A model generated the notes under the pieces. That model had not been told where the DNA came from and did not search any database. It saw only the letters and a program-made list of their open reading frames with translations. A program made the translations under genes and the position numbers. Below are positions 33,930 to 50,556 of a DNA stretch of 64,000 nt, one piece after another. Within the stretch, counting starts at the first letter, position 1, and every line of letters starts with the position of its first letter. The DNA comes from Anaerolineae bacterium (GTDB lineage Bacteria > Chloroflexota > Anaerolineae > DRVO01). Location: assembly GCA_013178015.1 (NCBI GenBank), contig JABLXR010000007.1, positions 37,682 through 101,681 on the forward strand, written 5' to 3'.

Positions 33930-35180
33930 ATGAGGAGACTGGCTCTCAACGGCGGAACCCCGGTACGGTCCGCTCCCTTTCCCGAGCGGCCCATCTTCGA
34001 CCAACTGGAGCTGACGGCGTTGGAGGAGGTGCTGACCAGCCGCCGCTGGACCAGCGCCCCCTACATCTTCAAGGGAGACATGTCCCTCTCGCGAACGTAC
34101 CGGCTGGAGCGGGACTACGCCGCCTACCACGATTGCCGTTTCGGCATCGCCACCGGCAGCGGCACCGACGCTCTCCAGATCGCCTACGCCGCCGCTGGCC
34201 TGGGCCCCGGCGATGAGGCCATCATGCCGCCCAACACTTTCATCGCCACGGCCACCCCTGCCCTCCACCTGGGGGCTGTGCCCATCTTTGCCGATGTGGA
34301 TCCCGAGACCCTCTGTCTTGATCCCGATGCCGTGGAAGCCGCCATCACCGACCGTACCCGCCTCATCGTGCCCCTCCACCTCGGGGGCTACCCTGCTGAC
34401 ATGGACCGCATCATGGAGATAGCCCGCCGGCACGACCTGACCGTCGTTGCCGACGCTTGCCACGCCGCGGGCACCGAGTGGCGGGGCCGGAAAGTAGCCG
34501 CCTTCTCGGACCTGAGCGCCTTCAGCTTCCAGCAGGACAAGCAGATCACCGCGGGCGAAGGCGGCATGGTGACCACCAACGACGAGAAGCTTTATGAGCA
34601 GTGCTACGTGCTTCACAACGACGGTCGGGGCCTGGGCGAGCACGGCGGGCACTTCGTGGCTCAGGGCTGGAACTTCCGCATGAGCGAGTTCCAGGCGGCC
34701 CTGCTTCTGGCCCAGCTGTCCCGCCTGGACGACCTGCTGAAGAGGAAGAACCGCAACGCGCGCAGGCTCGGGGCGGGGCTGGCCCAGGTGGGCGGGCTGA
34801 GCTGGCCGCGGGAAGACGAGCGCATCACTGCCCAGAGCTACGTCTACCCTCGCCTGCGCTACCACGCCGAGGCGTTCGATGGCCTGTCCGCCGCCACTTT
34901 CGCCGAGGCCCTTCGCGCGGAGGGCATCCCCTGCGGCGCCGGCTCTGGCTGGACCCTCTACCGGCATCCGCTCTTCACCGAGTCCAGCTTTCGCTTCGAT
35001 ACCTCCCGGCGGGTGGACTACCGCCAGGTGCACTGCCCCAACGCCGAGGACGCTGCCGGCCGCTGGATAGGCTTCCCCCAGGAGGTCATGCTCGCCGATG
35101 AGAGGGCCATAGATGACTTCGTGGAGGCAGTGGCCAAGATCAAGGCCAACCTAGGAGAGCTCGCGGCAGCGCCGGCCTAG
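33930..35180 (+). CDS. DegT/DnrJ/EryC1/StrS-family PLP-dependent (amino-sugar/aminocyclitol) aminotransferase #1
   Basis: MRRLALNGGTPVR…, GSGTDAL, and SFQQDKQITAGEGG with the PLP-lysine. ATG at 33930 with a GAGGAG SD. The upstream 190 codons of the 606-aa track ORF are rejected as read-through. Confidence 0.85.
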   Translation: MRRLALNGGTPVRSAPFPERPIFDQLELTALEEVLTSRRWTSAPYIFKGDMSLSRTYRLERDYAAYHDCRFGIATGSGTDALQIAYAAAGLGPGDEAIMPPNTFIATATPALHLGAVPIFADVDPETLCLDPDAVEAAITDRTRLIVPLHLGGYPADMDRIMEIARRHDLTVVADACHAAGTEWRGRKVAAFSDLSAFSFQQDKQITAGEGGMVTTNDEKLYEQCYVLHNDGRGLGEHGGHFVAQGWNFRMSEFQAALLLAQLSRLDDLLKRKNRNARRLGAGLAQVGGLSWPREDERITAQSYVYPRLRYHAEAFDGLSAATFAEALRAEGIPCGAGSGWTLYRHPLFTESSFRFDTSRRVDYRQVHCPNAEDAAGRWIGFPQEVMLADERAIDDFVEAVAKIKANLGELAAAPA

Positions 35181-35326
35181 CCCTCGACTCGGCGCGATGC
35201 CCACGGCTGAGGCCACCGATGCCCAGGTCCGGCAGCGATCGTCGGGCCCCACATCGCGCTCCGCCCCAGTGGCCGCGGGTGCGCCACAGCAGGCTCGATG
35301 GAGATGAGCACGGGAGGCCAAGCCCC

Positions 35327-36007
35327 ATGAAGGGGGACAAGTTGGCACTCTGGCGACGCTGGGTAGCCGCCAACGCCCTGGGGGAGCTGGTGGGCCTCGG
35401 TGCCACCGGGGCGATCGCTGCCCTAGTCTTCGCTAACCTCGGCGAGCAGAACGACACCTTTGCGATACTGACAGCCTTCGTTCTAGCTGTGGCAAGCGGG
35501 TCGGTTGAGGCCACCGTGCTCGGGCTGGCTCAATGGTGGGCCATGCGTCCCTGGTTCCCGACTCTCGGCCGGCGGTCCTGGTGGCTGGCTACGCTTGCCG
35601 GCGCCCTGATCGCCTACCTCCTCGGCTACTTGCCCAGTACCCTTGGGAGCCTGGGGGAGGAGTCGGCAGAAAGCCCGCTGGCTGAGGCGCCCCAGTGGGT
35701 GGTGCTGGCGCTGGCTGCCGGCCTCGGGATAGTGACGGGAGCCACCCTGTCCCTGGCTCAGTGGCTGGCACTTCGCAGGCACGTCCGGGGCGCAGTCCTG
35801 TGGGTCCCTGCCAATGCCCTCGCCTGGATGATCGGGATGCCCCTCATCTTCTGGGGAATGGACCTGGCCCAGAGAGCTCAGGCCCTTTGGCAGGTCGCTC
35901 TGCTTCTCGCTGCCGTCCTTCTGGCAGCTGGAGCTGTGGTCGGAGCCATCCACGGCGCCTTCCTGGTGCGTCTGGCGGAGGACGGCTGGAGGGCCGGAGG
36001 GAGCTAG
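35327..36007 (+). CDS. Hypothetical polytopic membrane protein
   Basis: About 6 predicted hydrophobic helices. ATG at 35327 with a GGGAGG SD. No recognisable family. Confidence 0.5.
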   Translation: MKGDKLALWRRWVAANALGELVGLGATGAIAALVFANLGEQNDTFAILTAFVLAVASGSVEATVLGLAQWWAMRPWFPTLGRRSWWLATLAGALIAYLLGYLPSTLGSLGEESAESPLAEAPQWVVLALAAGLGIVTGATLSLAQWLALRRHVRGAVLWVPANALAWMIGMPLIFWGMDLAQRAQALWQVALLLAAVLLAAGAVVGAIHGAFLVRLAEDGWRAGGS

Positions 36008-36155
36008 GACACCCGGCCCACCCATTCCGTCCCATGCTCGTCCTCCCCCTCCGGTCCCGGCCGCCTGTGAGCCGCGCCGCATCTTACCCTCGGAAGCGTT
36101 ACATAGCTGGGGCTCGATGCACCTGATGCGTGCGCCCGTCCGTCTGCAATACCCC

Positions 36156-36184
36156 TTGACGTGGGGTCTGAAAGCGAGTATACT
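36156..36184 (+). promoter_or_regulatory. Sigma70-type promoter: TTGACG, 17-nt spacer, TATACT
   Basis: Near-consensus -35 (36156-36161) and -10 (36179-36184) hexamers with a 17-nt spacer, 38-65 nt upstream of the candidate ROK start codons. This is a conspicuous AT-rich signal in a GC-rich background. Confidence 0.5.
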
Positions 36185-36248
36185 CACGCTACCGTTGCTA
36201 ACACAGGAGTTGGGAAGTCCCGTGGCGTCGCGTCACCAGATCCCAGCT

Positions 36249-37403
36249 ATGCACCGGGCGGCGATACTGGCCGCCATCAGGTCAGAAGGCCCGATCTCGC
36301 GAGCCGAGCTAGCCCGGCGGCTGCATCTGAGGCCGTCCTCGGTCACGGAGCAAGTGCGAGAGCTCATGTCAGAGGGTCTGATCTGCGAAGTGGGACAGGG
36401 GGGCTCCGATGGGGGCCGGCCTCCGGTCTTGCTCGACATCGCCCGGGCGGGCAACTACGCCATCGGGATAACCCTGGAGCCCAGGGGCATCGCCGCTGCC
36501 CTAGTGCAGTGGGACGGGACCATTCTCGCCCGCGCTCCGTTGCAGTCCGTGGATGCCGGCAGCTCACCTGAGACTCTGGAGGATGCCGCCATTGCGGTCA
36601 CGGAGGAGGTCCTGGCAGACGCCGCGGTACCCCTCTCCTCCGTGCACACCATAGGGGTGGGCGTCTCCGCCCTGGTGGACACCACCGCGAACGAAGCCAT
36701 CTTCAGCAGCACCTTCTCCGAGCTGGGGCGCTTTCGCTTCGATCGTCTGGCGGAGCACTTCGGCAAGCCCGTCTACTTGGAGGACATCGCCTACCTGATG
36801 GCGCTGGGGGAGCGCTGGTTTGTCTATCCCAAGGACCCGCGCCCGCTGGTCTTCCTCCTCATTAGCAGCGGAACCTGCGGGGCTGTTCTGTCCCCGGCGG
36901 GCACGCCGGAGCTACCCCGATTCGCCGCCGAGTTCGGGCATATGGTCCTGGACGCCGACGGCCCTATCTGCGGTTGTGGCAGGCGCGGGTGCCTAGAAGC
37001 CTTCGTCTCCGAGACCGCCCTCGTGGCCACGGCCAATCGCCTCCTGGGGGCGCCCGGGCACCCGCCTTTGGGGCTGGAGGAGGTAGCGCGCCTGGTTCAC
37101 GAAGGCAATCCGGTGGCCCAGAGTATCCTGTCCACCGCCGCCGAGCACCTCGGCCTGGCGGTAGCCAGCATATCCAGCATCTTCGCTCCGGCCCTCCTCG
37201 TGCTTGGCGGGTCGGTAGTGGAGGCCTGGCGCGACCAGTTGGTGCCCCAGGTGCGCGCACACGCCCGTTCACATTTGCTCGAGTTCCTCCAGGATCGCGT
37301 AGAGATCGTCCCTTCGCAGCTGGGGTCCGACGCCGCCCTGCTGGGGAGCGCGGCCCGGGCTCTGGACGCTGCCTTCGTTGCTCCTCGTCTACTGCCCGTG
37401 TGA
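36249..37403 (+). CDS. ROK-family transcriptional regulator (NagC/Mlc-like: N-terminal HTH plus sugar-kinase-like domain)
   Basis: HTH segment ISRAELARRLHLRPSSVTEQVRELMSEGLI. ROK signature with a zinc motif (…HMVLDADGPICGCGRRGCLEAF…). The start is ambiguous (ATG 36249, or GTG 36222 with AGGAG upstream). Confidence 0.8.
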   Translation: MHRAAILAAIRSEGPISRAELARRLHLRPSSVTEQVRELMSEGLICEVGQGGSDGGRPPVLLDIARAGNYAIGITLEPRGIAAALVQWDGTILARAPLQSVDAGSSPETLEDAAIAVTEEVLADAAVPLSSVHTIGVGVSALVDTTANEAIFSSTFSELGRFRFDRLAEHFGKPVYLEDIAYLMALGERWFVYPKDPRPLVFLLISSGTCGAVLSPAGTPELPRFAAEFGHMVLDADGPICGCGRRGCLEAFVSETALVATANRLLGAPGHPPLGLEEVARLVHEGNPVAQSILSTAAEHLGLAVASISSIFAPALLVLGGSVVEAWRDQLVPQVRAHARSHLLEFLQDRVEIVPSQLGSDAALLGSAARALDAAFVAPRLLPV

Positions 37404-37584
37404 GTCCGGCACCCGACGAGGGTGAGTACCGTGCCGACGATGTGAGCCGGGGTCGCCCAGCACCCCGGGACCTGACGGCCATCGGGCGTCCACGGCACTG
37501 CGCGCGGCCTGCGTCCGCGCTGCTGCGTGGATTCTGTCGCTGATTCGGGAGCCTACGGAAGGCGTCTCCAAGGGAGGTCAGGCA

Positions 37585-38844
37585 ATGGCTCGCTATCTCG
37601 AAGACAACGTCGGTGGAATCACAGGTGGCTACGCTTTCGCGGATGGAGTCCAGCTCAAAGTCCCCTACTCCTTCATGGGTTCGATCTACGACGAGGAGGA
37701 GGAACAGGCCCTGCTGCACGTGATGCGGCAGGACTCCCTCACCGCCGGGCCCCAAGTGGCTTCCTTCCAGAAGGAGTTCGCCCAGTGGTGCGGAGTGAAG
37801 CACGCCTTCGCTACCACCAGCTGCACCACCGCCATGCACGTGGCCACTCAGGCCCTGGGCATCGGCGAGGGCGACGAGGTGATCATCACCCCCAACACCT
37901 TCATCGCCACCACCCTGGCCGTCCTCAAAGAGGGCGGCATCCCAGTCTATGCCGACATAGATCCCCGCACCTACAACATAGACCCGGCGGAGGTGGCCAA
38001 GAAAGTCACCGACAAGACCAAGGCCATCTTCGTGGTCCACTATGCCGGGCAGATGTGCGACATGGACCCCATCATGGAGGTCGCCCGGGCCCACGGCCTG
38101 GCGGTGCTGGAGGACTGCGCCCACGCCCACGGCTCCGAATACAAGGGCCAGAAGGCGGGCGCGGTGGGTGACGTGGGCTGCTTCAGCTTCCACTCCCTCA
38201 AGAACATGACTATGGGCGAAGGTGGGATGATTACCACCAACCGGGATGACCTGGTTCCCCGCATCGAGCTGTTGCGCAACATGAACATAAAGAGCTGGGA
38301 GAACCAGAAGTACTACTGGCTCCCCTCCCACTTCGACGTGGTGGATGTGGACGGCAAGTGGGGGGTCAACTACCGCATGAACGAGTTCCAGGCCGCCCTG
38401 GGCCGGTGCCAGTTGCGCAAGCTCCCCATGATGGTCGAGAAGCGCCGCGAGTTGGGCCGCCGCATCAACGCTGGGCTGCAGGGCATTCCGGGCATCACCC
38501 CGGTGTACGAGGACCCCAACTGCCACCACTCCTACCACCTCTACACCCTTTGCGTGGAGCCTGAGGAGCTGGGCGCCAGCCGGGATGAGTTCCTGCGGGC
38601 GCTGTACTACGAGGAGGGAGTGCAGGGCATCCTCCACTACCAGCCCAACTACGACTTCACCGGAGTGAAGAAGTACCTGGAGGAGCGAGGATACGGGGGC
38701 CAGTTCTGCCCCATCGCCGACAAGTTCTTCTACCGCCGGCAGATGAACCTGCCCATCCACCCGCGGCTCACCATGGAGGACGCCGACAACATCATCACCG
38801 GCGTCCGCAACGCCGCCGAGAAGGTGAGGGGCAGCGGCAAGTAA
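37585..38844 (+). CDS. DegT/DnrJ/EryC1/StrS-family PLP-dependent aminotransferase #2
   Basis: SFHSLKNMTMGEGG with the PLP-lysine, and the DegT fold throughout. ATG with a GGGAGG SD. Confidence 0.85.
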   Translation: MARYLEDNVGGITGGYAFADGVQLKVPYSFMGSIYDEEEEQALLHVMRQDSLTAGPQVASFQKEFAQWCGVKHAFATTSCTTAMHVATQALGIGEGDEVIITPNTFIATTLAVLKEGGIPVYADIDPRTYNIDPAEVAKKVTDKTKAIFVVHYAGQMCDMDPIMEVARAHGLAVLEDCAHAHGSEYKGQKAGAVGDVGCFSFHSLKNMTMGEGGMITTNRDDLVPRIELLRNMNIKSWENQKYYWLPSHFDVVDVDGKWGVNYRMNEFQAALGRCQLRKLPMMVEKRRELGRRINAGLQGIPGITPVYEDPNCHHSYHLYTLCVEPEELGASRDEFLRALYYEEGVQGILHYQPNYDFTGVKKYLEERGYGGQFCPIADKFFYRRQMNLPIHPRLTMEDADNIITGVRNAAEKVRGSGK

Positions 38845-38905: not shown

Positions 38906-39967
38906 GTGGCAGTGAGATGGGGTGTCATCGGAGCCGGCGGGATCGCCGATCGCAGGACCATCCCGGAGATGCTGCAGGTTGCCGACAACGCGCAGCTGGT
39001 GGCTCTCATGGACGTGAGCGCGGAGGCCGTAGCCCGCGTCGCCGCCAAGTACGGCGTTTCTGCCATCTACACCGACGAGGAAGCTCTGCTAAGCGATCCT
39101 CAGGTGGAGGCAGTGTACATCGCCACGCCGCAAAACGTTCATCACCGCCAGGTGTTGGCGGCGGCCCGTCACGGCAAGCACGTGCTGTGTGAGAAGCCAA
39201 TGGCGACCAGTATGGCGGACGCCGAGGAGATGATCGAGGCCTGCGCTAGAGCGGGGGTCAAGCTCGGCCTCGACTACATGATGCGCTTCAACATCCATAA
39301 CCAGAAGATACGCGAGCTGGTGGCTAGCGGCGCCCTGGGCCAGTTGGTGATGGGCCGAGCAGAGCTCACCTGCTGGTATCCCCCCATGCCCACTGCCTGG
39401 CGCCAGAAGCGAGAAACCGCTTACGGCGGCTCCCTCATAGACATGGGCAGCCACTGCCTCGACATCCTGGAGTGGATCTTCGACAGCCGCATCACCGAGG
39501 TCTTCGCCTTCCACGATACCATCACCCACTCGTACGACGTCGAGGACACCTCTACCACCATCTTGCGCTTCGAGAACGGCGCCCATGGCATTGTAGACAA
39601 CTACTTCAACGTCCCCGACGAGGCCGCCAAGAACCTCCTCGAGGTCTACGGCACCCAGGGCAGCATCCTAGCCTCCGGCACCATCGGGCAGGACCCCACC
39701 GGCACCTTCACTTCCTACCTGGCCCCCCCGGGGCAGACCTACTCGCCCAACCAGGTGAGAGACTCGACCTCGCGCGTGCAGGCCAAGACTTACCAGTTCG
39801 AGGGCGTCCCCATGTACGGGACCATGGTCAAGCTGTTCAGCCAGGCTATCGAGGAGGGGGGCGAGCCCCCCGTGCCCGGCGAGGTGGGCCTGCACAACCT
39901 GCGGGTCATCATGGCCATCTACGAGGCGGCTCGCAGCGGCAGGCCGGTCAAGATCAGCTACGCGTAG
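38906..39967 (+). CDS. Gfo/Idh/MocA-family oxidoreductase
   Basis: VRWGVIGAGGIADRRTIPEM…CEKPMA. GTG start with an AGGAGG SD (8-nt spacing). Confidence 0.85.
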   Translation: MAVRWGVIGAGGIADRRTIPEMLQVADNAQLVALMDVSAEAVARVAAKYGVSAIYTDEEALLSDPQVEAVYIATPQNVHHRQVLAAARHGKHVLCEKPMATSMADAEEMIEACARAGVKLGLDYMMRFNIHNQKIRELVASGALGQLVMGRAELTCWYPPMPTAWRQKRETAYGGSLIDMGSHCLDILEWIFDSRITEVFAFHDTITHSYDVEDTSTTILRFENGAHGIVDNYFNVPDEAAKNLLEVYGTQGSILASGTIGQDPTGTFTSYLAPPGQTYSPNQVRDSTSRVQAKTYQFEGVPMYGTMVKLFSQAIEEGGEPPVPGEVGLHNLRVIMAIYEAARSGRPVKISYA

Positions 39968-39971
39968 GGCT

Positions 39972-40083
39972 CGCCACAGAGACACGGAGGCACAGAGCGA
40001 TGGCCAATAGGGACCAGGCTGGGAGCGGCATGGCGACACCGGCTCTCGCTCGGTTCCGCTCTGTGTCTCTGCGACTCCGTGGC
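39972..40083. repeat. REP-like purine-rich imperfect palindrome (family core CACAGAGACACGGAG)
   Basis: Left arm ccacagagacacggaggcacagagcg (39973-39999) and right arm cgctctgtgtctctgcgactccgtgg (40057-40083), nearly reverse-complementary, immediately after the Gfo stop codon. Confidence 0.55.
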
Positions 40084-40095
40084 TGACCGGGAGGG

Positions 40096-41394
40096 ATGAC
40101 TTTGGCTGAGTTGGCGATTAACGGCGGAGCTCCGGTCAGGACGAGGGAGTGGCCGGCTTGGCCGGTCCACGATGAGCGCGAGGTGGAAGCCATCACCGAG
40201 GTCACCCGGAGCGGCAAGTGGTGGCGCTTCGCTTACGCTTCCGGAGTGGAACTTAACGAGGATTTGAGCGCCCGGGAGCTCTCCAAGGTGGTGCAGTTCG
40301 GCCTTGCCTTCGCTCGCCACCACGGGGCTCGCTACGGCATCGCCATGGCCAACGGCACCGGCACCCTGGAAGTGGCCCTGAGGGCCCTGGGCGTCGGCCC
40401 CGGCGACGAGGTCATCGTACCCGCCTACACCTACGTGGCCAGCGCCACCAGCGTGCTGCAGGTGAACGCCGTCCCCATCTTCGTGGACGTCGAGCCCGAT
40501 ACCTACAACCTCGATCCGTCCCTCCTGGAGGGCGCCATCAGCGAGCGCACCCGGGCCATCATGCCGGTGCACTTCGGAGGCCAGTCCTGCGACATGGACG
40601 CCATCCTCGAGATCGCCCGCCGGCACGGCCTGGCGGTGGTAGAGGATGCTGCCCACGGCCACGGGTCCGAGTGGAAGGGCCGCAAGGTCGGGGCCCTGGG
40701 TGACGTGGGCTCGTTCAGCTTCCAGTCCTCCAAGAACATGACAGCGGGCGAGGGAGGCATCGTCCTCACCAACGATCGAGCCCTGGCGGAGAAGTGCGAC
40801 TCTTTGCTCTGGGCCGGCCGCCAGAAGGGCCGGCCCTGGTATGAGTTCCACCAGCTAGGGTGGAACCACCGTATGACCGAGTTCCAGGCTGCCATCCTGC
40901 TGGTTCAGCTGCAGCGGCTGGAGGAGCAGAACGCCCGCCGGATGCAGAACGTCCGCTACCTTAATGATAGGCTGGCGGGGATGGAGGGCCTTCAGCCATT
41001 GCGCTGGGACGAAAGGGCCACCAAGCACAGCTTCTACCTCTACATCCTGCGCTACGACCCGGCCGCGTTCGGCGGCCTGCCCCGGGCCCGGTTCGTGGAG
41101 GCCCTGGCGGCGGAGGGCGTGCCCGCCTTCACCGGTTACACCTTTCCGGTGTATGCCAATCCCATGTTTCTGGACCAAAACTTCCACGGGAAGGGGTGCC
41201 CGGTCAACTGCCATCACTACGGCGGCACCGTAGACTACGCCAGTTTCGCCCGAACCTGCCCTGTCACTGAGAGAGCCTGCTACGAGGAGTCCATCTGGCT
41301 GGAGCACCGGCTCTTCCTGGGCGATCAGGGCGACATGGACGACATAGCTGAGGCGCTGGCCAAGGTCGGCACCAACGTCAGGGAGTTGGCCTGA
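40096..41394 (+). CDS. DegT/DnrJ/EryC1/StrS-family PLP-dependent aminotransferase #3
   Basis: MTLAELAINGGAPVR… and SFQSSKNMTAGEGG. The GGGAGGG SD abuts the ATG at 40096, so the true start may be the TTG at 40102. Confidence 0.85.
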   Translation: MTLAELAINGGAPVRTREWPAWPVHDEREVEAITEVTRSGKWWRFAYASGVELNEDLSARELSKVVQFGLAFARHHGARYGIAMANGTGTLEVALRALGVGPGDEVIVPAYTYVASATSVLQVNAVPIFVDVEPDTYNLDPSLLEGAISERTRAIMPVHFGGQSCDMDAILEIARRHGLAVVEDAAHGHGSEWKGRKVGALGDVGSFSFQSSKNMTAGEGGIVLTNDRALAEKCDSLLWAGRQKGRPWYEFHQLGWNHRMTEFQAAILLVQLQRLEEQNARRMQNVRYLNDRLAGMEGLQPLRWDERATKHSFYLYILRYDPAAFGGLPRARFVEALAAEGVPAFTGYTFPVYANPMFLDQNFHGKGCPVNCHHYGGTVDYASFARTCPVTERACYEESIWLEHRLFLGDQGDMDDIAEALAKVGTNVRELA

Positions 41395-42938: not shown

Positions 42939-42979
42939 CGACGGGAGCAGCCCTCACCCGCCCTCTGCTCTCGGCCGCG

Positions 42980-43079
42980 AGGGGAGAGGGGGAGACGCGG
43001 CGACGGAGAGAGGGGGAGATACGGAGACAGGGGGAACGGGGCAGGACGGTTCTGCGCCTCTCCCTGTCTCTCCCTCTCC
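42980..43079. repeat. REP-like purine-rich imperfect palindrome between the binding-protein and permease genes
   Basis: gaggggagagggggagacgcggcgacggagagagggggagatacggagacaggg … ccctgtctctccctctcc. The stem-loop sits where differential expression of binding protein versus permease is usually set. Confidence 0.5.
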
Positions 43080-43123
43080 ATGACGGGTGAGGCCCACCGG
43101 AGGAGCAACCTAAGGAGGCTGAC

Positions 43124-44059: not shown

Positions 44060-44063
44060 ACAG

Positions 44064-44966
44064 ATGGCGAACACCGCGGCAGTCGCCAAGACCAGCACCC
44101 GGCCCACCGGCGCCAGAGCCTTCCTCGCCAGGCGCTCGGTTCAGAGGTACATCGGCAGGACGCTCATTTACCTACTCCTAGTAGCCGGGGCCGTCGTCCT
44201 CATGATGCCTCTGGCCTGGCTGCTCTCCAGCTCTCTCAAGCCTTCGGGGCTGATATTCGTGGTACCGCCCCAGTGGATTCCTGACCCCATCGCCTGGCAG
44301 AACTACGCCCAGGTCTGGGAGATGATCCCGTTCGGTCTCTACTTGCGGAACACCCTTGTGATAACCGTGTTCTGCATCATCGGAGCTTCGGCGTCAGCGG
44401 CGATTGTGGCCTTCGGCTTCGCTCGGCTTCGATTCCCCGGCCGGGACGTTCTCTTTCTAGTGCTGTTGAGCACCATCATGATCCCGGAACAGGTGACCCT
44501 CATCCCGACCTACGTGCTTTTCCGCATACTGGGCTGGCTGGATAGCTACTATCCCCTGATCGTGCCCGCCTTCTTCGGCGGCGGTGCCTTCAACATCTTC
44601 CTCCTGCGCCAGTACTACATGAGGTTGCCCCTCGAGCTGGACGACGCCGCCCGGATAGATGGCTGCAGCTCCTTCGGCATCTTCCGACGGATCCTGCTCC
44701 CGCAGTGTCGCCCGGCCCTGGGCGTGATCGCTATCCTGCTGTTCATGGGCAATTGGAATGGCTTCTTCCTGCCCCTCATCTACCTCAACTCGCCTGACAA
44801 GTACACCCTGGCTCTGGGCCTCAACCTGTTCCGCGGCACCCAGTACACCGCCTGGAACCTGCTCATGGCCGCTTCCACCATGGTGTCGCTGCCATGCATC
44901 GTGCTCTACTTCGTGGCCCAGAGATACTTCATCCAGGGCATCGTCTTCACCGGAATCAAGGGCTAG
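44064..44966 (+). CDS. Sugar ABC transporter permease (MalG-like)
   Basis: EAA loop ELDDAARIDGCSSFGIFRRILLP. Start at the ATG 44064 (MANTAAV…) with a GGGGAGGGG SD; the track ORF is extended by 16 codons. Confidence 0.8.
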   Translation: MANTAAVAKTSTRPTGARAFLARRSVQRYIGRTLIYLLLVAGAVVLMMPLAWLLSSSLKPSGLIFVVPPQWIPDPIAWQNYAQVWEMIPFGLYLRNTLVITVFCIIGASASAAIVAFGFARLRFPGRDVLFLVLLSTIMIPEQVTLIPTYVLFRILGWLDSYYPLIVPAFFGGGAFNIFLLRQYYMRLPLELDDAARIDGCSSFGIFRRILLPQCRPALGVIAILLFMGNWNGFFLPLIYLNSPDKYTLALGLNLFRGTQYTAWNLLMAASTMVSLPCIVLYFVAQRYFIQGIVFTGIKG

Positions 44967-44967
44967 C

Positions 44968-45120
44968 CACAGAGACACGGAGACACCGAGAGGGGGAGAG
45001 GGAGCGACACGGAGAAGCGCAAAGCACAGACAGTGAGAGAGGAAGAGACACCGACTTCACTCCCTCTCCGTGTCTCATTGTCTCCCCTTCTCTCCCTTAC
45101 TGTGCTTCCGTGTTTCGGTG
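44968..45120. repeat. REP-like purine-rich imperfect palindrome (largest family member, arms about 70 nt)
   Basis: ccacagagacacggagacaccgagagggggagagggagcgacacggag … ctccgtgtctcattgtctccccttctctccc, centred near 45055. Confidence 0.55.
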
Positions 45121-45141
45121 GCTGCCCCGAGGAGGCATCGG

Positions 45142-46308
45142 TTGGATGAGATACGCATAGCCGTTGTGGGACTCGGCTGGCGCGGCATCGGCACCTGGTT
45201 CGGCATCCTGCAGTCCATGCCAGGCTACCGTATCACTGCCATATGTGACCCGCTTGAGCAGCTGCACGAGAGGGCGGTGTCGCGGCTGAAGCGCCCGGAC
45301 GAGGTCAAGGTCTACACCCACTACGAGGACGTCCTGTCCGACGACAACGTTGACGCCGTGGCCCTCACCGTGCGCTGCCAGGAGCAGGGAGCCCTGGCCG
45401 CCATGGCCCTGGAGGCGGGCAAGCACGTCAACAGCGAGGTGCCGGCTTCTCACAGCATCGAGGACTGCTGGCGGATCGTTCTGGCCCAAGAGCGCTCGGG
45501 CAAGGTGTACCAACTGGCGGAACAGACACGTTACTGGGGCTTCGTGGAGGCCTGGCGCGAGATGGTGGCCCAGGGTCAGCTAGGCCACGTCACCCTGTGC
45601 GAGGGTCAGTACTTCCACTACTACGTGGGTCAGCACTTCCGCGATCGGGCCTCGGGGCGATTCCTGCATCCCAGCGAAGTGAGCCGCTACCCGGGAGCGG
45701 AGGGCACCTGGCTCAACCGCATGCCACCTATCCACTACCTCCCCCACGAGCTCAGCCCTATGCTTAAGGTCCTGGATGATCGGGTGACGCAGGTGGTGGC
45801 CATGAGCACCCGGGACCGGAGCTACGCTCATCCCCAGATCGAGACGGCCGACATGCAGATGGCTCTCATGAAGACCGAGAAGGATGCCATCCTCCGGATG
45901 GGAGTCTCCTTCTCTCAGCCTCACCCCGAGGCCAACTATCACTGGTATCACGTCATGGGGACGCTCGGCGCAGTGGAGTGGAAGCGGGCCAATCGAGACC
46001 GGCCCCGCATGTGGTTGGCCAACGCCCAGATGCACGACATGGCCGAGGTGGACTGGCGCTACGAGCGCACCGACGCCCCGGCGGAAGCGCGTGGCAGCGG
46101 TCACGGCGACGCCGACTACTACGTCCACGCCGCCTTTCGTGATGCCGTCCTGCAGGGCAAGCCCCTGGAGTTCGACGTCTACCAGGCCATGGACACGGCC
46201 GCACCCGCCATCCTGGCCGCCCAGTCCATCGCCGAGGGCAGCGTCCCACTGGAAGTGCCCGACTTTCGGCCTGGCAACGGCCGGGCCAGGGGCTCCGGGC
46301 CCAAGTGA
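45142..46308 (+). CDS. Gfo/Idh/MocA-like oxidoreductase with an extended C-terminal domain
   Basis: IRIAVVGLGWRGIG Rossmann motif. TTG start at 45142 with a GAGGAGG SD (6-nt spacing), giving MDEIRIAVVGLG…; the track extension is rejected. Confidence 0.7.
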   Translation: MDEIRIAVVGLGWRGIGTWFGILQSMPGYRITAICDPLEQLHERAVSRLKRPDEVKVYTHYEDVLSDDNVDAVALTVRCQEQGALAAMALEAGKHVNSEVPASHSIEDCWRIVLAQERSGKVYQLAEQTRYWGFVEAWREMVAQGQLGHVTLCEGQYFHYYVGQHFRDRASGRFLHPSEVSRYPGAEGTWLNRMPPIHYLPHELSPMLKVLDDRVTQVVAMSTRDRSYAHPQIETADMQMALMKTEKDAILRMGVSFSQPHPEANYHWYHVMGTLGAVEWKRANRDRPRMWLANAQMHDMAEVDWRYERTDAPAEARGSGHGDADYYVHAAFRDAVLQGKPLEFDVYQAMDTAAPAILAAQSIAEGSVPLEVPDFRPGNGRARGSGPK

Positions 46309-46331
46309 GCAGAGCGAGCGAGGAGAGTGCC

Positions 46332-47354
46332 ATGGCCGAGTACGGCATAGGCATCTGGGGAGCCGGATGGGTGGCAGGAGAGCACGCCCGCGCCTACACC
46401 AACAACCCCAAAGCTCGAGTGGTGGCGGTGGGCAGCCGCACGCTGGAAGGGGCCAGGCGGCGCATCGAGGAGTGGGGCATCGTCGGTTGCCGGGCCTACG
46501 ATGACCTGGAGGAGCTTCTGGCCCACCCGGAGCTGGACGTCGTTTCGGTGTGTACCCCCAACTACCGCCACGCCGCCGACGTGGTCGCCATCGCGTCGGC
46601 GGGCAAGCACATCCTCATCGAGAAACCACCCGCCACCGACCTGGAAGGCCTGCGGGCCATGCGGGACGCCGTCCGGCAGGCGGGCGTCAAGACGCTCGTG
46701 GGCTTCGTGTTACACTGGCACCCGCTGTTCCAGGCAGTGAAGCGGGTGGTCGCCGGCGGGCTATTGGGCCGGGTGATCATGGCCCAGCTGGATTACTGGC
46801 ACCGCCTGACCGCCGAGGACCAACTCCCCCTCTACGCCTGGCTGGTGAGTAGGGAGAAAGCGGGGAGCATCTTCCTGGCCGGCGGGTCCCACCCCATGGA
46901 CGCGGTGCGCTGGTTTCTGGGCGGCGAGATCGAGGAGGTTTGCGGCTACTCCACCGAGCCCTCGGGGGACTACGACTACCCCACCACCACCGTGGGACTG
47001 CTGCGCTTTCGGGATGGCGCCATCGCCAAGATCAGCGCCTGCGTAGAGGCCTACCTACCCTACACCTTCAACATCGACCTGCTGGGGGAAGAGGGTACCC
47101 TGCGAGACGAGCGCGTCTGCAGCCGCAAGCTGGGAGACGGTAAGGAATGGGTGGACCTGGGCGTGGCCGCTCCCCATAGCGGCGAGGTCAGCGCCCATCC
47201 CTTCCAAGCCGAGATCAACTACTTCCTGGACTGCCTAGACCGCGGCGTGGACTCGGAGATCAACCTGGAGGACGGGGTCAAGACCACCGAGGCCTGCCTG
47301 GCGGTGGACATGGCGGCGGTCTCGGGCAGGCCAGTGAAGCTGCCGCTGCTGTAG
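46332..47354 (+). CDS. Gfo/Idh/MocA-family oxidoreductase
   Basis: MAEYGIGIWGAGWVAGEHARAY…IEKPPA. ATG at 46332 with an AGGAG SD. Confidence 0.8.
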   Translation: MAEYGIGIWGAGWVAGEHARAYTNNPKARVVAVGSRTLEGARRRIEEWGIVGCRAYDDLEELLAHPELDVVSVCTPNYRHAADVVAIASAGKHILIEKPPATDLEGLRAMRDAVRQAGVKTLVGFVLHWHPLFQAVKRVVAGGLLGRVIMAQLDYWHRLTAEDQLPLYAWLVSREKAGSIFLAGGSHPMDAVRWFLGGEIEEVCGYSTEPSGDYDYPTTTVGLLRFRDGAIAKISACVEAYLPYTFNIDLLGEEGTLRDERVCSRKLGDGKEWVDLGVAAPHSGEVSAHPFQAEINYFLDCLDRGVDSEINLEDGVKTTEACLAVDMAAVSGRPVKLPLL

Positions 47355-47369
47355 CCCTGCCGCGAACCG

Positions 47370-47436
47370 GCCACAGGGACACAGAGGCACGGAGCACCAG
47401 AGAAGGAACCTCCGTCACTCCGTGCCTTGGTGGGAG
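47370..47436. repeat. REP-like imperfect palindrome (ccacagggacacagaggcacggag … ctccgtcactccgtgcc)
   Basis: Same core as the other family members, immediately after the Gfo stop codon. Confidence 0.5.
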
Positions 47437-47467
47437 TCACGACTAAGCACGAAGTGGAGCAGCCGGA

Positions 47468-48634
47468 ATGGGCAAGAAGGTCTACGATGATCGCGACATC
47501 GCTTACATCAAGCGCGTCCTCGACGAGCCGCAGGACATCACCGGCGCTAAGGTGGTGGCGGAGTTCGAGGAAAGATTCGCCGAGAAGGTCGGCTCTCGCT
47601 ACGCCGTGGCGGTGGCCAATGGCATGTGCGGCCTCCACACCCTGCTGGCGGCTGCCGGGGTGGGCCCGGCCGTCGAGGTCATCGTGGACCCCATCGTCCA
47701 GTTCGGCGCCCTCTCCGTGCTCTACAACAACGGCGTGCCCATTTTCGCCGACGTAGACCCCGCCACCCACAACATGGACCCCCGCTCCTTCGAGGAGCGC
47801 CTCACCCCCGACACCAAGGCGGCGGTGGTGACGCACCTGTGGGGGCTGCCGGCGGAGGTGGAGCAGATGCGGGCTGTCGCCGACAGGCAGGGGATAGTCC
47901 TGGTGGAGGACTGCGCCCACGCCCTGCTGGCCCAGCACAAAGGTCGGCGTGTGGGCACCTGGGGCCACGCAGCGATGTTCAGCTTCCAGGCCTCCAAGCA
48001 CCTTAGCACCGGGGACGGGGGGATGCTGACCACCAGCGACGAGGGCCTCCTCCAGGAGATCCGCTCCCTCATGAACTGGGGGGCGGCGCCGGACCGCATG
48101 GCCTACAATTTCCGCATGCCGGGGGTGGTGGCCGCCGTGGGGCTGGCCCAACTGGAGCGAGCGGACGACTACGTGCGGCAGGACATGCAAAGTGCCGAGC
48201 TGTACCATCAGGCCCTCGAGGGCTGTGAGTGGCTGGTGCCCCAGGTCGTTGCCCCCTACAACACCCACTCTCAGCACATCTTCGCCGTAGCCTTCCGGGG
48301 CGAGGAGCACGGCATTGACTACGAGGAGTTCAAGCGGGTGAGCCGGGAGGAGAAGGCCGGGCTAGGCTTCGGCTACACCCAGCGCACCTGGCGGGAAGCG
48401 CAGATCGTGGCCGCCTACCAGTTCCCCGTGTTCAAGGAGCCGGTGGCCTACGGCAAGGGCTGCCCCACCCACTGCCCTCACTACCGCAAGGACCTGCCCT
48501 ATCGTAACGGCTACTGCCCCAACGCCGAGGACCTGGTGCCGCGCCTGTGCCTCAGGGGCCTCAGCAGCGCTCTACCCGACGACATCGCCAGAGGGGCCGA
48601 GGGCCTGCGCCGGGCCATCGAGCGCGTGAGCTAG
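47468..48634 (+). CDS. DegT/DnrJ/EryC1/StrS-family PLP-dependent aminotransferase #4
   Basis: …AVANGMCGLH…, SFQASKHLSTGDGG with the PLP-lysine. Confidence 0.85.
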   Translation: MGKKVYDDRDIAYIKRVLDEPQDITGAKVVAEFEERFAEKVGSRYAVAVANGMCGLHTLLAAAGVGPAVEVIVDPIVQFGALSVLYNNGVPIFADVDPATHNMDPRSFEERLTPDTKAAVVTHLWGLPAEVEQMRAVADRQGIVLVEDCAHALLAQHKGRRVGTWGHAAMFSFQASKHLSTGDGGMLTTSDEGLLQEIRSLMNWGAAPDRMAYNFRMPGVVAAVGLAQLERADDYVRQDMQSAELYHQALEGCEWLVPQVVAPYNTHSQHIFAVAFRGEEHGIDYEEFKRVSREEKAGLGFGYTQRTWREAQIVAAYQFPVFKEPVAYGKGCPTHCPHYRKDLPYRNGYCPNAEDLVPRLCLRGLSSALPDDIARGAEGLRRAIERVS

Positions 48635-48779
48635 CAGACAAGGGAGGGAGCACCTTGAGGCTGGGAATGGCTGGCCTCGCCTCGGTATACTACTCCGCGG
48701 CCTTCGCCGGCGCCGCCAGACGCATCGAAGAGGTCAAGGGCCCTGACGGCCACCATGGGCCAGGGCGGGGAGACTGCCG

Positions 48780-49640
48780 GTGACTTTGGACAAAGCGTAC
48801 ATCCGCGACGGGCTACGGGCTGGGGGCCTCTCGCCGGGGGACAGCCTGATCATGCACTGCTCCTTGAGCAGCCTCGGCCACGTCGAGGGAGGCGCCGATA
48901 CCCTCATAGACGCTGTCCTGGAGGCGGTGTCGCCTGGTGGCACCGTCATGATGCCCGCCCTTCCCGACATCTACCGGCCCTTCGACGTGCGCACTTCCCC
49001 CTCCACCGCAGGCCTGGTAAGCGAAGTCTTCTGGCGCCGGCCCGATGCCTTCCGCAGCCGGCACCCCAGCCATTCGGTGGCCGCCATCGGGCCGCAGGCC
49101 CGCTGGCTCACCGAGGGGCACGAGCACACCGACCCCACCGGCATCGGCAGCCCCTACCACAAGCTGTACCAACAGGAAGGATCGTGGGTGCTCCTGATCG
49201 GGGTGGACCACGACCGCAATACCATGCTGCACCTGGCGGAGGCACTGGTACGGGTGCCCTACCTGCGCACAAGTCAGCTGAGGGTAGTCAACCCGGACGG
49301 TTCCGCAAGCCACTACCGGGCCCGAGAGATGGCATACGGTCACCGGGAGTTCATCCGCATAGACTGGCCCCTTCGTGAGGCCAACCTCCAACGGCAGGGT
49401 ATCATCGGCAACGCGATAGTGCGGCTTATCCGGGTGCGCGATCTGGTGGACTTCGCCGTCCGGCTGCTGCGGTCCGACCCTGCGGCGCTCCTCTGCGACA
49501 AGCCCAGGTGCATCTTCTGCCTGTGGGCCCGGGCGCAGATCCGCTCCGCTCAGACGGGACAGCCGGACGAGACTGACTGGCCGGACTTGACGCGCCGCTG
49601 GGGCTGCGGCGACCCGCATTGCGAGTGCTGCGTCGTCTAG
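48780..49640 (+). CDS. AAC(3)-family (Antibiotic_NAT, PF02522-like) aminoglycoside N3-acetyltransferase homolog with a cysteine-rich C-terminal extension
   Basis: GDSLIMHCSLSSLGHVEGGADTLIDAVLEAVSPGGTVMMP, RSRHPSHSVAAIGP and TMLHLAEALVRVPY align with AAC(3)-II/IV signature blocks. GTG start with a GGGGAG SD. The C-terminal roughly 40 aa carry 7 Cys (CDKPRCIFC…CGDPHCECC). Confidence 0.8.
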   Translation: MTLDKAYIRDGLRAGGLSPGDSLIMHCSLSSLGHVEGGADTLIDAVLEAVSPGGTVMMPALPDIYRPFDVRTSPSTAGLVSEVFWRRPDAFRSRHPSHSVAAIGPQARWLTEGHEHTDPTGIGSPYHKLYQQEGSWVLLIGVDHDRNTMLHLAEALVRVPYLRTSQLRVVNPDGSASHYRAREMAYGHREFIRIDWPLREANLQRQGIIGNAIVRLIRVRDLVDFAVRLLRSDPAALLCDKPRCIFCLWARAQIRSAQTGQPDETDWPDLTRRWGCGDPHCECCVV

Positions 49641-49646
49641 CAGTTA

Positions 49647-49761
49647 CCGCGGAGACACAGCAAGAAGAAGAGGGGGAGAGGGGGAGACTGTGTGACGCGG
49701 AGATGCTCAAGGGCTGCTTGTCTCCGCGTCCCCGCGTCTCCCCATCACCCCCTCTCCCCCC
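49647..49761. repeat. REP-like purine-rich imperfect palindrome
   Basis: ccgcggagacacagcaagaagaagagggggagagggggagactgtgtgacgcggagatgc … gcttgtctccgcgtccccgcgtctcccc. Confidence 0.5.
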
Positions 49762-49815
49762 AATCCGGAGGGTGAGGCGTTGGCTGAGTTGCTGATGCCG
49801 GTAGGTGAGGTCGCC

Positions 49816-50556
49816 ATGAGGCGGCTGTGTGCGCCCCTGCCCATGATGCGAGGCTGGCGCGCCGCTGTGAAGCGGATCGCGGCCCTGGGTATCGGCACGG
49901 TGGAGCTGGGGCCAGAGTGGCTTCTCGAATCCAACCAGATCAGGGCGGCGGATCTCTCGGACGCTCTGGAAGACGCCGGGATCGAGGCGCGCATCGCCCG
50001 GCTGCCGGCGCCCCCGCTCCATCCCGGTGATCCAGGGCGTCTGCCCCTCTGGGATCTGGTCAGCCGTGCCGATCACTTCTTGCTGCCGAGCGGACAGCTC
50101 GGCCAGATGGCGCCCTCGATAAGCCTGATGGCGGAGATGGCGGAGGTATATCACACCGCCGGGGCGACGCTGCTGTTGGAGAACGACCCGGAAGCCTGGC
50201 CGCCCGATGGCCAGACTCTGGGCCGCTTCGTGGCCGAGGTCGGTCATCCGGGCCTGCTCTCCTGCTATGATCCTGCTCGTTCGGCGGCTCTCAAGAGGCA
50301 CCCCTTCCTGACCGACTTCCTGTCCGGCCCCCTCAAGCAGGGGATGCGCTGTCTGCGGCTGCGGGACGCCCTGTTCGAAAACGGCCGAGAGGTACGGCCG
50401 GGCGAGGGCAACGCCGAGCTGAAGGAACTGGTGTCGGCGCTGGAGTCTCGTCGCTACCAGGGGTGGTACATCCTCTCACCCTTCGGGCGAGGGCCTTATC
50501 CGGACCGGTTGCAGGCGGCCTACGACGCCGTGCGCGGGATCCTAGCCTCGCTGTGA
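49816..50556 (+). CDS. Xylose-isomerase-like TIM-barrel protein (sugar phosphate isomerase/epimerase family; IolE/IolI/MocC-like candidate)
   Basis: …AALGIGTVELG…LLLENDPE… The track starts at the TTG 49780; the ATG at 49816 with an AGGTGAGG SD (5-nt spacing) is preferred. Confidence 0.55.
   Translation: MRRLCAPLPMMRGWRAAVKRIAALGIGTVELGPEWLLESNQIRAADLSDALEDAGIEARIARLPAPPLHPGDPGRLPLWDLVSRADHFLLPSGQLGQMAPSISLMAEMAEVYHTAGATLLLENDPEAWPPDGQTLGRFVAEVGHPGLLSCYDPARSAALKRHPFLTDFLSGPLKQGMRCLRLRDALFENGREVRPGEGNAELKELVSALESRRYQGWYILSPFGRGPYPDRLQAAYDAVRGILASL

Follow-up and report, generated by a model that had tools for sequence, protein, structure and literature searches.

A 64,000-nucleotide stretch from an Anaerolineae bacterium (assembly GCA_013178015.1, contig JABLXR010000007.1, positions 37,682 to 101,681; hereafter the window, GC ~65%) carries a cluster in which four pyridoxal phosphate (PLP)-dependent aminotransferases of the DegT/DnrJ/EryC1/StrS family (DegT1 to DegT4) are interleaved with three Gfo/Idh/MocA oxidoreductases (GFO1 to GFO3), together with a ROK repressor, a CUT1 sugar importer, a homolog of aminoglycoside 3-N-acetyltransferase (AAC(3)), a TIM-barrel protein, a deacetylase and further amidohydrolases. 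Our preferred reading, to which we give about an even chance of being correct, is that of an operon, inducible by its substrate, for the catabolism or salvage of an imported oligosaccharide rich in amino sugars (N-acetylated, free or both), handled as free sugars through keto intermediates and not as nucleotide sugars. The argument draws on gene content, intact catalytic motifs, protein folds, synteny and the co-occurrence of the same families across phyla, and on this basis we infer which way the flux runs, how the steps follow one another and what the substrate is.

Gene content of the cluster

Genes were placed by Pfam scans of the open reading frames (ORFs) of the window and by a gene caller based on codon-position GC, which reproduced the known map. 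Two Logan contigs carry DegT2 in identical form and keep the gene order around it; the gene boundaries of the 226-aa protein and of the main permeases were taken from them. The cluster genes all lie on one strand with spacers of 60-185 nt, as follows.

33930-35180, plus: DegT1, PLP aminotransferase (Pfam DegT/DnrJ/EryC1/StrS, E 3.5e-91)
35327-36007, plus: 226-aa polytopic membrane protein (gene call on the identical contigs; LapA_dom sub-threshold only)
36222-37403 (long ORF from 36117), plus: ROK repressor with N-terminal winged helix-turn-helix (HTH) (Pfam)
37585-38844, plus: DegT2, PLP aminotransferase (Pfam, E 2.2e-113)
38906-39967, plus: GFO1, Gfo/Idh/MocA (Pfam; closest solved structure 1,5-anhydro-D-fructose reductase)
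40096-41394, plus: DegT3, PLP aminotransferase (Pfam, E 8.1e-104)
41559-42938, plus: substrate-binding protein (SBP) lipoprotein (SBP_bac_1) of the main CUT1 importer (Pfam)
43124-44059 and ~44064-44966, plus: BPD_transp_1 permeases of the main importer (Pfam; boundaries from the identical contigs)
45070-46308, plus: GFO2, divergent Gfo/Idh/MocA, candidate GH109-like (Pfam; start probably ~70 nt downstream of 45070)
46305-47354, plus: GFO3, Gfo/Idh/MocA (Pfam)
47468-48634, plus: DegT4, PLP aminotransferase (Pfam, E 1.7e-72)
48780-49640, plus: AAC(3)-fold N-acetyltransferase homolog (Antibiotic_NAT; Pfam, E 7.9e-59)
49780-50556, plus: AP_endonuc_2, xylose-isomerase-like TIM barrel (Pfam, E 4.8e-10)
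50690-52411, plus: p597, 573-aa Agd3/PelA-like deacetylase (motifs, predicted structure)
52427-53101, plus: p224, 224-aa pol-beta-type nucleotidyltransferase-like ORF (sub-threshold Pfam)
53112-53912, plus: creatininase-family amidohydrolase (Pfam)
53582-54646: class-I S-adenosylmethionine (SAM) methyltransferase domain (E 3e-21)
54667-55374, plus: 'putative cyclase', kynurenine-formamidase-like (Pfam)

The four aminotransferases with their PLP lysine, the three oxidoreductases, the importers and the ROK, AAC(3)-like and TIM-barrel genes had been recognised from the letters alone in a preliminary description of this DNA, and Pfam places all of them at or near the positions given there.

Gene order is conserved in related genomes

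Three other Anaerolineae assemblies keep the same gene order from the ROK gene to the creatininase-family gene: ROK, DegT2, (GFO), GFO1, DegT3, SBP, permeases, GFO2, GFO3, DegT4, (Eis-type Acetyltransf_9 GNAT), AAC(3)-like, TIM barrel, deacetylase, creatininase. Two bioreactor-metagenome contigs keep it from the second permease on, GFO2 through creatininase, so that synteny extends to at least five other Anaerolineae contigs. Across the syntenic loci, ortholog identity falls from 91% (DegT2, in L003) through 82-83% (creatininase), 68-75% (deacetylase), 64% (ROK, the first gene of the L003 cluster) and 63-66% (DegT4) to 44-48% (TIM barrel). Since the order is kept despite such high divergence, we take these genes to form one functional unit and not a chance assembly.

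This unit is not the island of 33930-50556 that had been delimited before. Judged from gene order, it extends to ~53912, and the formamidase-like gene is probably a peripheral member, which would place the unit end at 55374; a 'putative cyclase' family gene closes a relative's cluster and lies directly 3' of AAC(3)-like genes in other taxa. At the other end, no DegT1 ortholog is present in the related loci fetched. The p224 ORF (NTP_transf_5 2.8e-4 and aminoglycoside 2''-adenylyltransferase 0.015, both sub-threshold) has no counterpart between the deacetylase and creatininase genes in three relatives and, being specific to this genome, probably stands outside the pathway. The methyltransferase ORF has no clear start codon, overlaps the creatininase gene in its long form and is likewise not kept in relatives.

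The alternative that there is no single pathway, only independent sugar operons packed into a carbohydrate-rich genome region, would account for the four CUT1 importers and seven GFO genes that the window holds in separate modules, for the occurrence apart of GFO1-DegT3, GFO2-p597 and AAC(3)-creatininase in other phyla, and for DegT1 and the upstream importer not being seen in relatives. The conserved ROK-to-creatininase order, at identities down to 44%, argues against it, as do the common strand, the short spacers lacking any terminator-like site, and partial combinations of these families recurring in Terriglobia and Verrucomicrobiota. We consider this alternative highly improbable.

Orthologs adjoin catabolic genes across phyla

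The DegT3 family is large (>7900 relatives at E<1e-30; >516 in a profile scan of one genome per species) and has members in Chloroflexota, Acidobacteriota, Planctomycetota, Verrucomicrobiota, Spirochaetota, Armatimonadota, KSB1 and cultured Cytophagales (Dyadobacter, Spirosoma, Runella, Larkinella, Chryseolinea). DegT3 orthologs that are 45-63% identical, from Acidobacteriota, Planctomycetota, Verrucomicrobiota, Cytophagales and others, adjoin catabolic genes. The families beside them comprise GFO proteins, ROK, LacI and AraC regulators, SSF, ABC and TonB transporters, the glycosidases GH20, GH123, GH84 and GH3, and amidases of the PIG-L, ceramidase-like, Amidohydro_2, M20 and creatininase types. 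Examples are given below; the GFO protein beside the Planctomycetota DegT3 ortholog is 55% identical to GFO1.

Terriglobales: LacI, FGGY kinase, SSF symporter, DegT, GFO, PIG-L deacetylase, ceramidase-like amidase, TonB receptors
Second DegT3 contig: TonB receptor, GH20, LacI, DegT, GFO, SSF, PIG-L, ceramidase-like
Planctomycetota (L007): two GH123, GFO, DegT, DegT, creatininase, two Amidohydro_2, URO-D
Another DegT3 contig: ROK, DegT, SBP, two permeases, two Amidohydro_2, GFO
Anaerolineales metagenome-assembled genome: LacI, GFO, DegT3, AAC(3)
Terriglobia: ROK, GFO1, DegT3, DegT, AAC(3) fragment, GFO
Verrucomicrobiota: DegT3, TIM barrel, SSF, M20 amidohydrolase, AAC(3)
Caldilineaceae: Opp-type ABC system with DegT3, AAC(3)

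A census covered 114 immediate neighbours of DegT3 orthologs from ~57 genomes, with Pfam counts added to phmmer single-sequence labelling, which under-detects divergent GFO and other families. GFO genes led (11), followed by ROK (9), ceramidase-like (8), TonB-receptor-like (7) and LacI (4), with DegT, amino-acid permease and AraC (3 each) and GH84 and GH3 (2 each) at lower ranks. Neither glycosyltransferase nor nucleotidyltransferase genes are among the top 25 families of these neighbours or in nine inspected related loci, and Pfam finds no glycosyltransferase or sugar nucleotidyltransferase gene in the cluster or the whole 64-kb window, in agreement with the preliminary description. A nucleotide-sugar biosynthetic island was rejected on this absence, here and in related loci.

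The surroundings of the AAC(3)-like gene tell a similar story. In a set of 39 metagenome loci with AAC(3)-like relatives, each 5 kb or longer, DegT genes lie within five genes in 12, creatininase-family genes in 8 and GFO1-like genes in 7. Lower-GC metagenome contigs repeat a compact order of DegT2-like, formamidase-like, AAC(3)-like, creatininase and GFO1-like genes. One contig (L122) carries AAC(3)-like, creatininase, GFO1-like and PIG-L genes, and another (L156, 48% GC) has ROK, AAC(3)-like, formamidase-like and GFO1-like genes followed by a glutamate dehydrogenase at 11275-12543, whose presence fits 2-oxoglutarate regeneration for transaminase-based deamination (transdeamination). In Kribbella and Tenggerimyces, homologs of p597 overlap a GH109_C-type GFO gene, and in Kribbella they adjoin an Opp-type importer. 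The sub-modules that recur across phyla are DegT3 with a GFO1-like gene, AAC(3)-like with creatininase or formamidase-like genes, and a GH109-like GFO with a deacetylase.

Because regulators, importers, glycosidases, varied amidohydrolases and, in one locus, a glutamate dehydrogenase surround these genes, the comparison supports a catabolic reading. A deaminating direction, as the preliminary description had proposed, is the one that the importer, the ROK repressor, the amidohydrolases and the neighbours of the orthologs suggest. The deacetylase, GH109-like GFO and creatininase-family partners point to N-acetyl- or amino-hexose glycans.

Aminotransferases and oxidoreductases

All four DegT proteins match PF01041 over their full length (380, 348, 307 and 245 bits; cut-off 19.8). 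The Schiff-base lysine K204, in an FSFxxxK motif and in place of the histidine of the dehydratase branch, and the pyridine-nitrogen-binding aspartate D175 (DegT1 numbering) are invariant in 4/4; in DegT3 the residue K213 is invariant among 42 relatives. The paralogs share 29-44% pairwise identity, with DegT1 and DegT3 at 44% and DegT4 the most divergent, and the GFO proteins share 25-27%; at such identities the paralogs of both families are ancient.

Among solved structures, DegT1 matches best L-glutamine:2-deoxy-scyllo-inosose aminotransferase (full length, 1.8e-65), and DegT3 the 2-deoxy-scyllo-inosose (DOI) aminotransferases 5w71 and 2c7t (full length, 1.3e-80). Enzymes of this type use free, not nucleotide-linked, substrates. 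The best solved match of DegT2 is an entry deposited as glutamine--scyllo-inositol transaminase, with perosamine synthases next, and those of DegT4 are more distant; WbpE, NtdA and AHBA synthase are also significant matches of the window DegT proteins. All four fall below the cut-offs of the NCBIfam nucleotide-sugar equivalogs (PseC, LegC, ArnB, WecE, DesI), the top score being that of DegT2 against PseC (307 bits, cut-off 423.5) and those of the others 184-227 bits. No NCBIfam equivalog cut-off is reached by any of ten proteins. The combination of nucleotide-sugar clades with glycosyltransferase or nucleotidyltransferase neighbours, which the preliminary description had named as the sign of a glycan-biosynthetic island, was looked for and not found. 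The C-termini of DegT3 and DegT4 (41200-41394 and 48440-48634) share a Cys/His motif, GKGCPxxCxHY...CP, which is kept across the DegT3 family and is not present in DegT1 or DegT2.

GFO1 to GFO3 each have the Rossmann N-terminal and alpha/beta C-terminal domains, both above Pfam gathering scores. The closest solved match of GFO1 is 1,5-anhydro-D-fructose reductase (2glx; 4.9e-49, full length), an enzyme that reduces the 2-ketone of a pyranose ring, and we propose that GFO1 may be a ring ketoreductase paired with DegT3. GFO2 is a candidate NAD-dependent glycosidase: its orthologs (73-83% identical) and its actinobacterial homologs are recorded with GH109_C, and the actinobacterial genes are translationally coupled to p597 homologs. 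GFO3 is distant from every solved enzyme and in relatives is always followed by DegT4.

An opposite direction, in which an imported neutral sugar or cyclitol is oxidised by GFO, aminated by DegT and N-acetylated by the AAC(3)- or Eis-like enzyme with no nucleotide activation, would serve to make a compatible solute, a precursor of the cell envelope or a natural product of the amino-sugar type, as with kanosamine or neotrehalosadiamine. The order GFO3-DegT4-acetyltransferase, with the acetyltransferase kept directly 3' of DegT4, mirrors WbpB/WbpE/WbpD, NtdC/NtdA and RifL/RifK; in these systems, as in GnnA/GnnB and KabC/KabA, a GFO and a DegT enzyme work on one ring carbon, and the DegT1/DegT3-like clade is known for free-sugar amination. 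The triads differ from the window in using UDP-sugars or sugar phosphates within glycan or antibiotic clusters, whereas the window, cluster included, has no gene for an activating enzyme, a glycosyltransferase, an exporter or a resistance target, and the acetyltransferase has the AAC(3) fold and not LbH or GNAT. A sugar-type ROK gene leads the operon, the transporter is an SBP-dependent importer, the conserved unit includes two to four genes for amidohydrolases or deacetylases, and orthologous pairs lie in loci resembling polysaccharide utilisation loci, with glycosidases and TonB receptors; the glutamate dehydrogenase neighbour in one locus speaks against biosynthesis as well. We therefore regard biosynthesis or remodelling as distinctly unlikely.

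TIM barrel and deacetylase point to keto-sugar and N-acetylhexosamine chemistry

The TIM-barrel protein matches PF01261 (40 bits, cut-off 31.1) and has no match among solved structures by sequence search. Its AlphaFold2 model (predicted local distance difference test, pLDDT, 81) confirmed the barrel fold, and the Foldseek matches are ketose 3-epimerases, UlaE, the 3-keto-glucoside epimerase YcjR and the 3-keto-glucal hydratase AtHYD (template-modelling (TM) score 0.6-0.72, ~15% identity). The family is narrow (12 proteins), with E42, D164, H174 and E213, putative metal ligands, invariant. Ketose epimerases, YcjR and the keto-glucal hydratase act next to a sugar carbonyl, and we propose from the model that the protein could be a keto-sugar epimerase, isomerase or hydratase.

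Known systems that process sugars as ring ketones include E. coli ycjM-V, the Agrobacterium 3-keto-glycoside pathway with AtHYD, levoglucosan Lgd, C-glycoside DgpA/CarBC, iol and moc. The ycj, AtHYD, Lgd and DgpA/CarBC systems resemble the window cluster in joining an SBP importer to several GFO proteins and a TIM barrel and in acting on free sugars through ring ketones. They differ in lacking PLP aminotransferases, N-acetyltransferases and deacetylases, whereas the window cluster interleaves four DegT genes with its dehydrogenases, and the window enzymes have low identity to the characterised ones (~15% for the TIM barrel).

The p597 protein consists of an N-terminal DUF4350/GAT-like domain and a NodB-type domain whose motifs (D258-D260, H304/H309, R346/H348, H451) are conserved in 55 family sequences; its NodB Pfam sequence score is 21.2, just below the cut-off of 23.1. 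The best Foldseek matches of its model (pLDDT 93.8) are Agd3 (1.4e-15), PelA (2.1e-12) and human NDST1 (1.6e-08), all of which deacetylate alpha-linked N-acetylhexosamine polymers. The kinship with Agd3, PelA, NDST and GH109 enzymes thus appears in the NodB motifs, in the fold matches and in the coupling of p597 homologs to GH109_C GFO genes. Agd3 and PelA are secreted or periplasmic and bring a polymer to maturity in the course of its biosynthesis, whereas p597 has no signal peptide, is predicted to be cytoplasmic and belongs to an uptake operon. Pel is described as a partially deacetylated alpha-1,4-N-acetylgalactosamine (GalNAc) polymer processed by PelA (PMC12022489).

The preliminary description had favoured rhizopine or inositol logic, in which a scyllo-inosamine-like aminocyclitol would be imported, converted by the DegT enzymes to inososes and passed to IolG/MocA-like and IolE/MocC-like steps. 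The likeness to moc and iol lies in the set of a GFO dehydrogenase, a TIM barrel, a binding-protein importer and a repressor, and aminocyclitol or inosose chemistry is plausible for the DegT1/DegT3 clade. The inosose aminotransferases matched by DegT1 and DegT3 and the scyllo-inositol transaminase entry matched by DegT2 also speak for this logic. IolG (TIGR04380) is the top NCBIfam model for all three GFO proteins, yet at 158, 51 and 143 bits it stays far below its cut-off of 355, and GFO1 is nearest to anhydrofructose reductase, not inositol dehydrogenase. The identification of the TIM barrel as IolE/MocC was rejected on its fold matches, which favour ketose epimerases and leave IolE outside the top 50. 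The rhizopine system comprises mocABC, mocDEF and mocR, with a MocB-type binding protein and a MocC-type TIM barrel; the window has no IolD, IolB, IolC, IolA or MocDEF-type gene and no Rieske or ferredoxin gene. Its main SBP is of the oligosaccharide CUT1 type, its TIM barrel is related to MocC at the level of fold only, and cyclitol catabolism offers no role for the conserved deacetylase and GH109-like genes. This proposal does not hold up well, and we consider it very unlikely.

The acetyltransferase and a possible aminoglycoside substrate

The AAC(3)-like protein has the Antibiotic_NAT fold (PF02522, 199.5 bits) and matches the solved AAC(3)-IVa at 7.2e-38. A true AAC(3) resistance gene was rejected, as its scores are far under the NCBIfam cut-offs (163 bits vs 420 for AAC(3)-IV, 144 vs 270 for the generic AAC_3). 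Its C-terminus (49494-49640) bears two CX4CX2C motifs, C239/C244/C247 and C276/C281/C284, both invariant in five orthologs of 52-71% identity (including those of L011, L012, L013 and L018); AAC(3)-IVa (~260 aa) aligns to residues 14-251 only and lacks the last ~35 residues with the second motif. The cysteine tail may be a metal-binding module. On lower-GC metagenome contigs the ORF is longer (476-497 aa; L135 7803-9233, L122 984-2423, L156 7953-9446, L175 2637-4118), with ~200 extra C-terminal residues that have no Pfam match, and is usually followed by a creatininase-family or formamidase-like 'putative cyclase' gene. In three relatives an Eis-type Acetyltransf_9 GNAT gene stands beside the AAC(3)-like gene, whereas the window has no Eis-like gene. 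AAC(3) and Eis-type enzymes are two different folds, both known from aminoglycoside modification.

These enzymes bring to mind uptake of an aminoglycoside or aminocyclitol (neamine- or kanamycin-like compounds, 2-deoxystreptamine), its acetylation by AAC(3) or Eis before it harms the ribosome, and then de-acylation, cleavage and deamination, with the BtrR-like aminotransferases and the dehydrogenases running the 2-deoxystreptamine pathway in reverse. Besides the DOI aminotransferase matches of DegT1 and DegT3, the two acetyltransferase types side by side in relatives and the recurrence of AAC(3)-like genes with DegT, GFO and amidohydrolase genes in several phyla, this idea gains from the number of aminotransferases, four for the four amines of neamine-type compounds, and from the bioreactor and activated-sludge metagenomes in which related contigs originate. 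The likeness to the 2-deoxystreptamine enzymes BtrR/BtrS, to AAC(3)-IV and, through the relatives, to Eis is offset by an uptake and catabolic setting and by the absence from the window of a DOI synthase, glycosyltransferase or exporter gene. The AAC(3) homolog scores far below its equivalog and has a clade-specific Cys-rich tail, the DOI aminotransferase matches are the best among solved structures only, and p597 resembles polysaccharide deacetylases. DegT3 and GFO1 are widespread beside GH20, GH123, PIG-L and TonB receptors, which suggests abundant glycans and not rare antibiotics. There is also no aminoglycoside phosphotransferase or rRNA methyltransferase gene, and the adenylyltransferase-like match of p224 is sub-threshold in a gene that relatives lack. 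We judge catabolism of aminoglycosides as such improbable.

A related idea, unlikely in our estimate, is that the acetyltransferases neutralise imported polycations, be they aminoglycosides or aminocyclitols or oligomers of galactosamine (GalN) or glucosamine (GlcN), which the amidohydrolases, BtrR-like aminotransferases and ketoreductases would then dismantle. If true, it would identify a native, pre-antibiotic function and an environmental reservoir of two aminoglycoside-resistance enzyme families, and a PLP-dependent, phosphorylation-independent route of amino-sugar catabolism across many phyla.

Importer, regulator and spacers

The main SBP has Lmo0181 as its best solved match (8e-38), followed by oligosaccharide binders, and carries a twin-arginine lipoprotein leader. 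YcjN and DgpA are among the sequence matches from the searches with this SBP and with GFO1. The preliminary description had called this importer complete; Pfam finds no ABC ATPase gene (ABC_tran) in the cluster or the 64-kb window. An ATPase that is shared and encoded elsewhere is usual for CUT1 importers.

The regulator combines a ROK domain (1.6e-39) with an HTH_24/MarR match at residues 46-91 (3e-8). A sigma70-like site with 10/12 matches at 36156-36184, just 5' of the likely start, agrees with the claim that the gene has its own promoter; the start is probably the GTG at 36222, downstream of this site. Inspection of the promoter regions by eye revealed no shared palindromic ROK operator.

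Several spacers (39968-40095, 42939-43123, 44967-45150, 47355-47467 and 49641-49779) contain long imperfect palindromes with GGAGACAC / GGGGAGAGGG-type motifs, and the 20-mer CCACAGAGACACGGAGRCAC occurs four times where 0 are expected. Predicted RNA hairpins in four of them reach -59 to -76 kcal/mol (z -2.3 to -3.8), whereas the value for spacer 47355-47467 (-43 kcal/mol, z -1.6) does not stand out from that of shuffled sequence. No T-tail follows any spacer hairpin; the palindromes look like repetitive extragenic palindromic (REP)-like or mRNA-processing or -stabilising elements, not terminators.

Proposed pathway

We postulate that ROK would repress the operon until sugar arrives and that the SBP lipoprotein and the two permeases, with an ATPase from elsewhere, would import the oligosaccharide. 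In the cytoplasm p597 would strip N-acyl groups, as would the creatininase-family and formamidase-like amidohydrolases, and GFO2 would split the glycosidic bond by NAD-dependent oxidation and elimination. Each DegT paralog would then move one amine of the ring onto a 2-oxo acid, so that a ketone remains in its place; GFO1 and GFO3 would reduce ring ketones to hydroxyls, and the TIM barrel would epimerise or isomerise adjacent to the keto group. The end product would be an ordinary neutral hexose, with the nitrogen going to glutamate or alanine. The AAC(3)-like enzyme (Eis-like in relatives) would acetylate free amines, either neutralising a polycation on entry or shielding one amine while another is processed. 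The likeliest substrate would be alpha-linked oligomers of GalNAc/GalN or N-acetylglucosamine (GlcNAc)/GlcN, similar in type to Pel or galactosaminogalactan, with biofilm matrix or necromass as the source; between these we lean, tentatively, towards the GalNAc/GalN oligomers.

Several points weigh against this proposal. First, biosynthesis is the classical setting for triads of GFO, DegT and N-acetyltransferase, it is not obvious what an acetyl-CoA-dependent acetyltransferase would do in a deaminating route that includes deacetylases, and we found no precedent in the literature for C2 transamination of a free hexosamine. Second, DegT2 and DegT4 score about as well against GDP-perosamine synthase as against any other match, and none of the protein sub-families in the cluster is known to have a characterised member. 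Third, the GH109_C match of GFO2 is below cut-off (18.5 bits vs 27, E 0.0013), and the TM-scores of p597 against Agd3 and PelA are low (0.41-0.43), a consequence of domain arrangement. Lastly, the cluster contains no kinase, aldolase or other link to central metabolism.

A major share of the organic nitrogen of soil, sludge and sediments is bound in amino sugars. Bacteria are known to deaminate these as sugar phosphates, through the deaminase/isomerases NagB (glucosamine 6-phosphate) and AgaS (galactosamine 6-phosphate). A transaminase and ketoreductase route on free sugars, if real, would be a different solution. It would also explain thousands of environmental DegT and GFO genes mis-annotated as dTDP-sugar transaminases or inositol dehydrogenases, and would give a physiological context to chromosomal AAC(3)- and Eis-like genes now counted as resistance in resistome surveys. 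The preliminary description had held such a pathway to be undescribed; our full-text literature search likewise found no description of a catabolic DegT and Gfo/Idh/MocA pathway, nor of a catabolic combination of four DegT genes with AAC(3)- or Eis-type and several amidohydrolase genes, which amounts to no more than absence of evidence. The signal in the genomes is strong and extends over many phyla; it has a bearing on the cycling of amino-sugar nitrogen and on the native role of the AAC(3) family, while the mechanism throughout is what we infer from it. Since cultured Dyadobacter, Spirosoma, Runella, Kribbella and Tenggerimyces carry sub-modules, the idea is directly testable.

Other genes in the window

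Upstream of the cluster, as the preliminary description had indicated for 30146-33631, lies a divergent importer.

33631-32201, minus: SBP of the second CUT1 importer (Pfam)
32136-31210 and 31252-30146, minus: permeases of the second CUT1 importer (Pfam)
30000-27739, minus: hybrid histidine kinase, in line with the upstream importer

Between the two importers, identity is 54-58% for the permeases and only 21% for the SBPs. The upstream SBP has a twin-arginine/lipobox leader, and positions 33798-33770 of the minus strand form a promoter-like site. No ortholog of this importer was seen in the related loci fetched, and its link to the cluster is uncertain.

Elsewhere outside the cluster the window holds two more CUT1 importers, GFO genes, a PIG-L gene, a second TIM barrel, two URO-D-like genes, two pairs of response regulator and hybrid kinase, and genes for an AXE1-like esterase, a BNR protein and an HpcH aldolase. 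These are further modules of sugar uptake and catabolism, and they too speak for the catabolic reading of the cluster. The minus-strand module at 16305-26337 comprises two permeases, an SBP, a URO-D-like gene, an AXE1-like esterase, a second URO-D-like gene, a TIM barrel, a PIG-L deacetylase and a GFO. Because URO-D-like genes also lie 3' of the DegT/creatininase/Amidohydro_2 block in Planctomycetota L007, the two may be functionally related. At 719-12791 (minus) are an HpcH/HpaI aldolase, a LarA-like protein, a GFO, a protein resembling acyl-CoA:6-aminopenicillanic acid (6-APA) acyltransferase (Ntn hydrolase), a CUT1 SBP and permease, a BNR/sialidase-like protein and an FAD-dependent oxidoreductase. 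One arrangement occurs twice, at 12913-16255 and 26454-30000: a plus-strand response regulator with a C-terminal receiver domain runs towards a hybrid histidine kinase on the minus strand, the last gene of a sugar-importer operon on that strand, and the two genes overlap. The regulator copy at 26454-27809 has a sigma70 region-4-like HTH as well.

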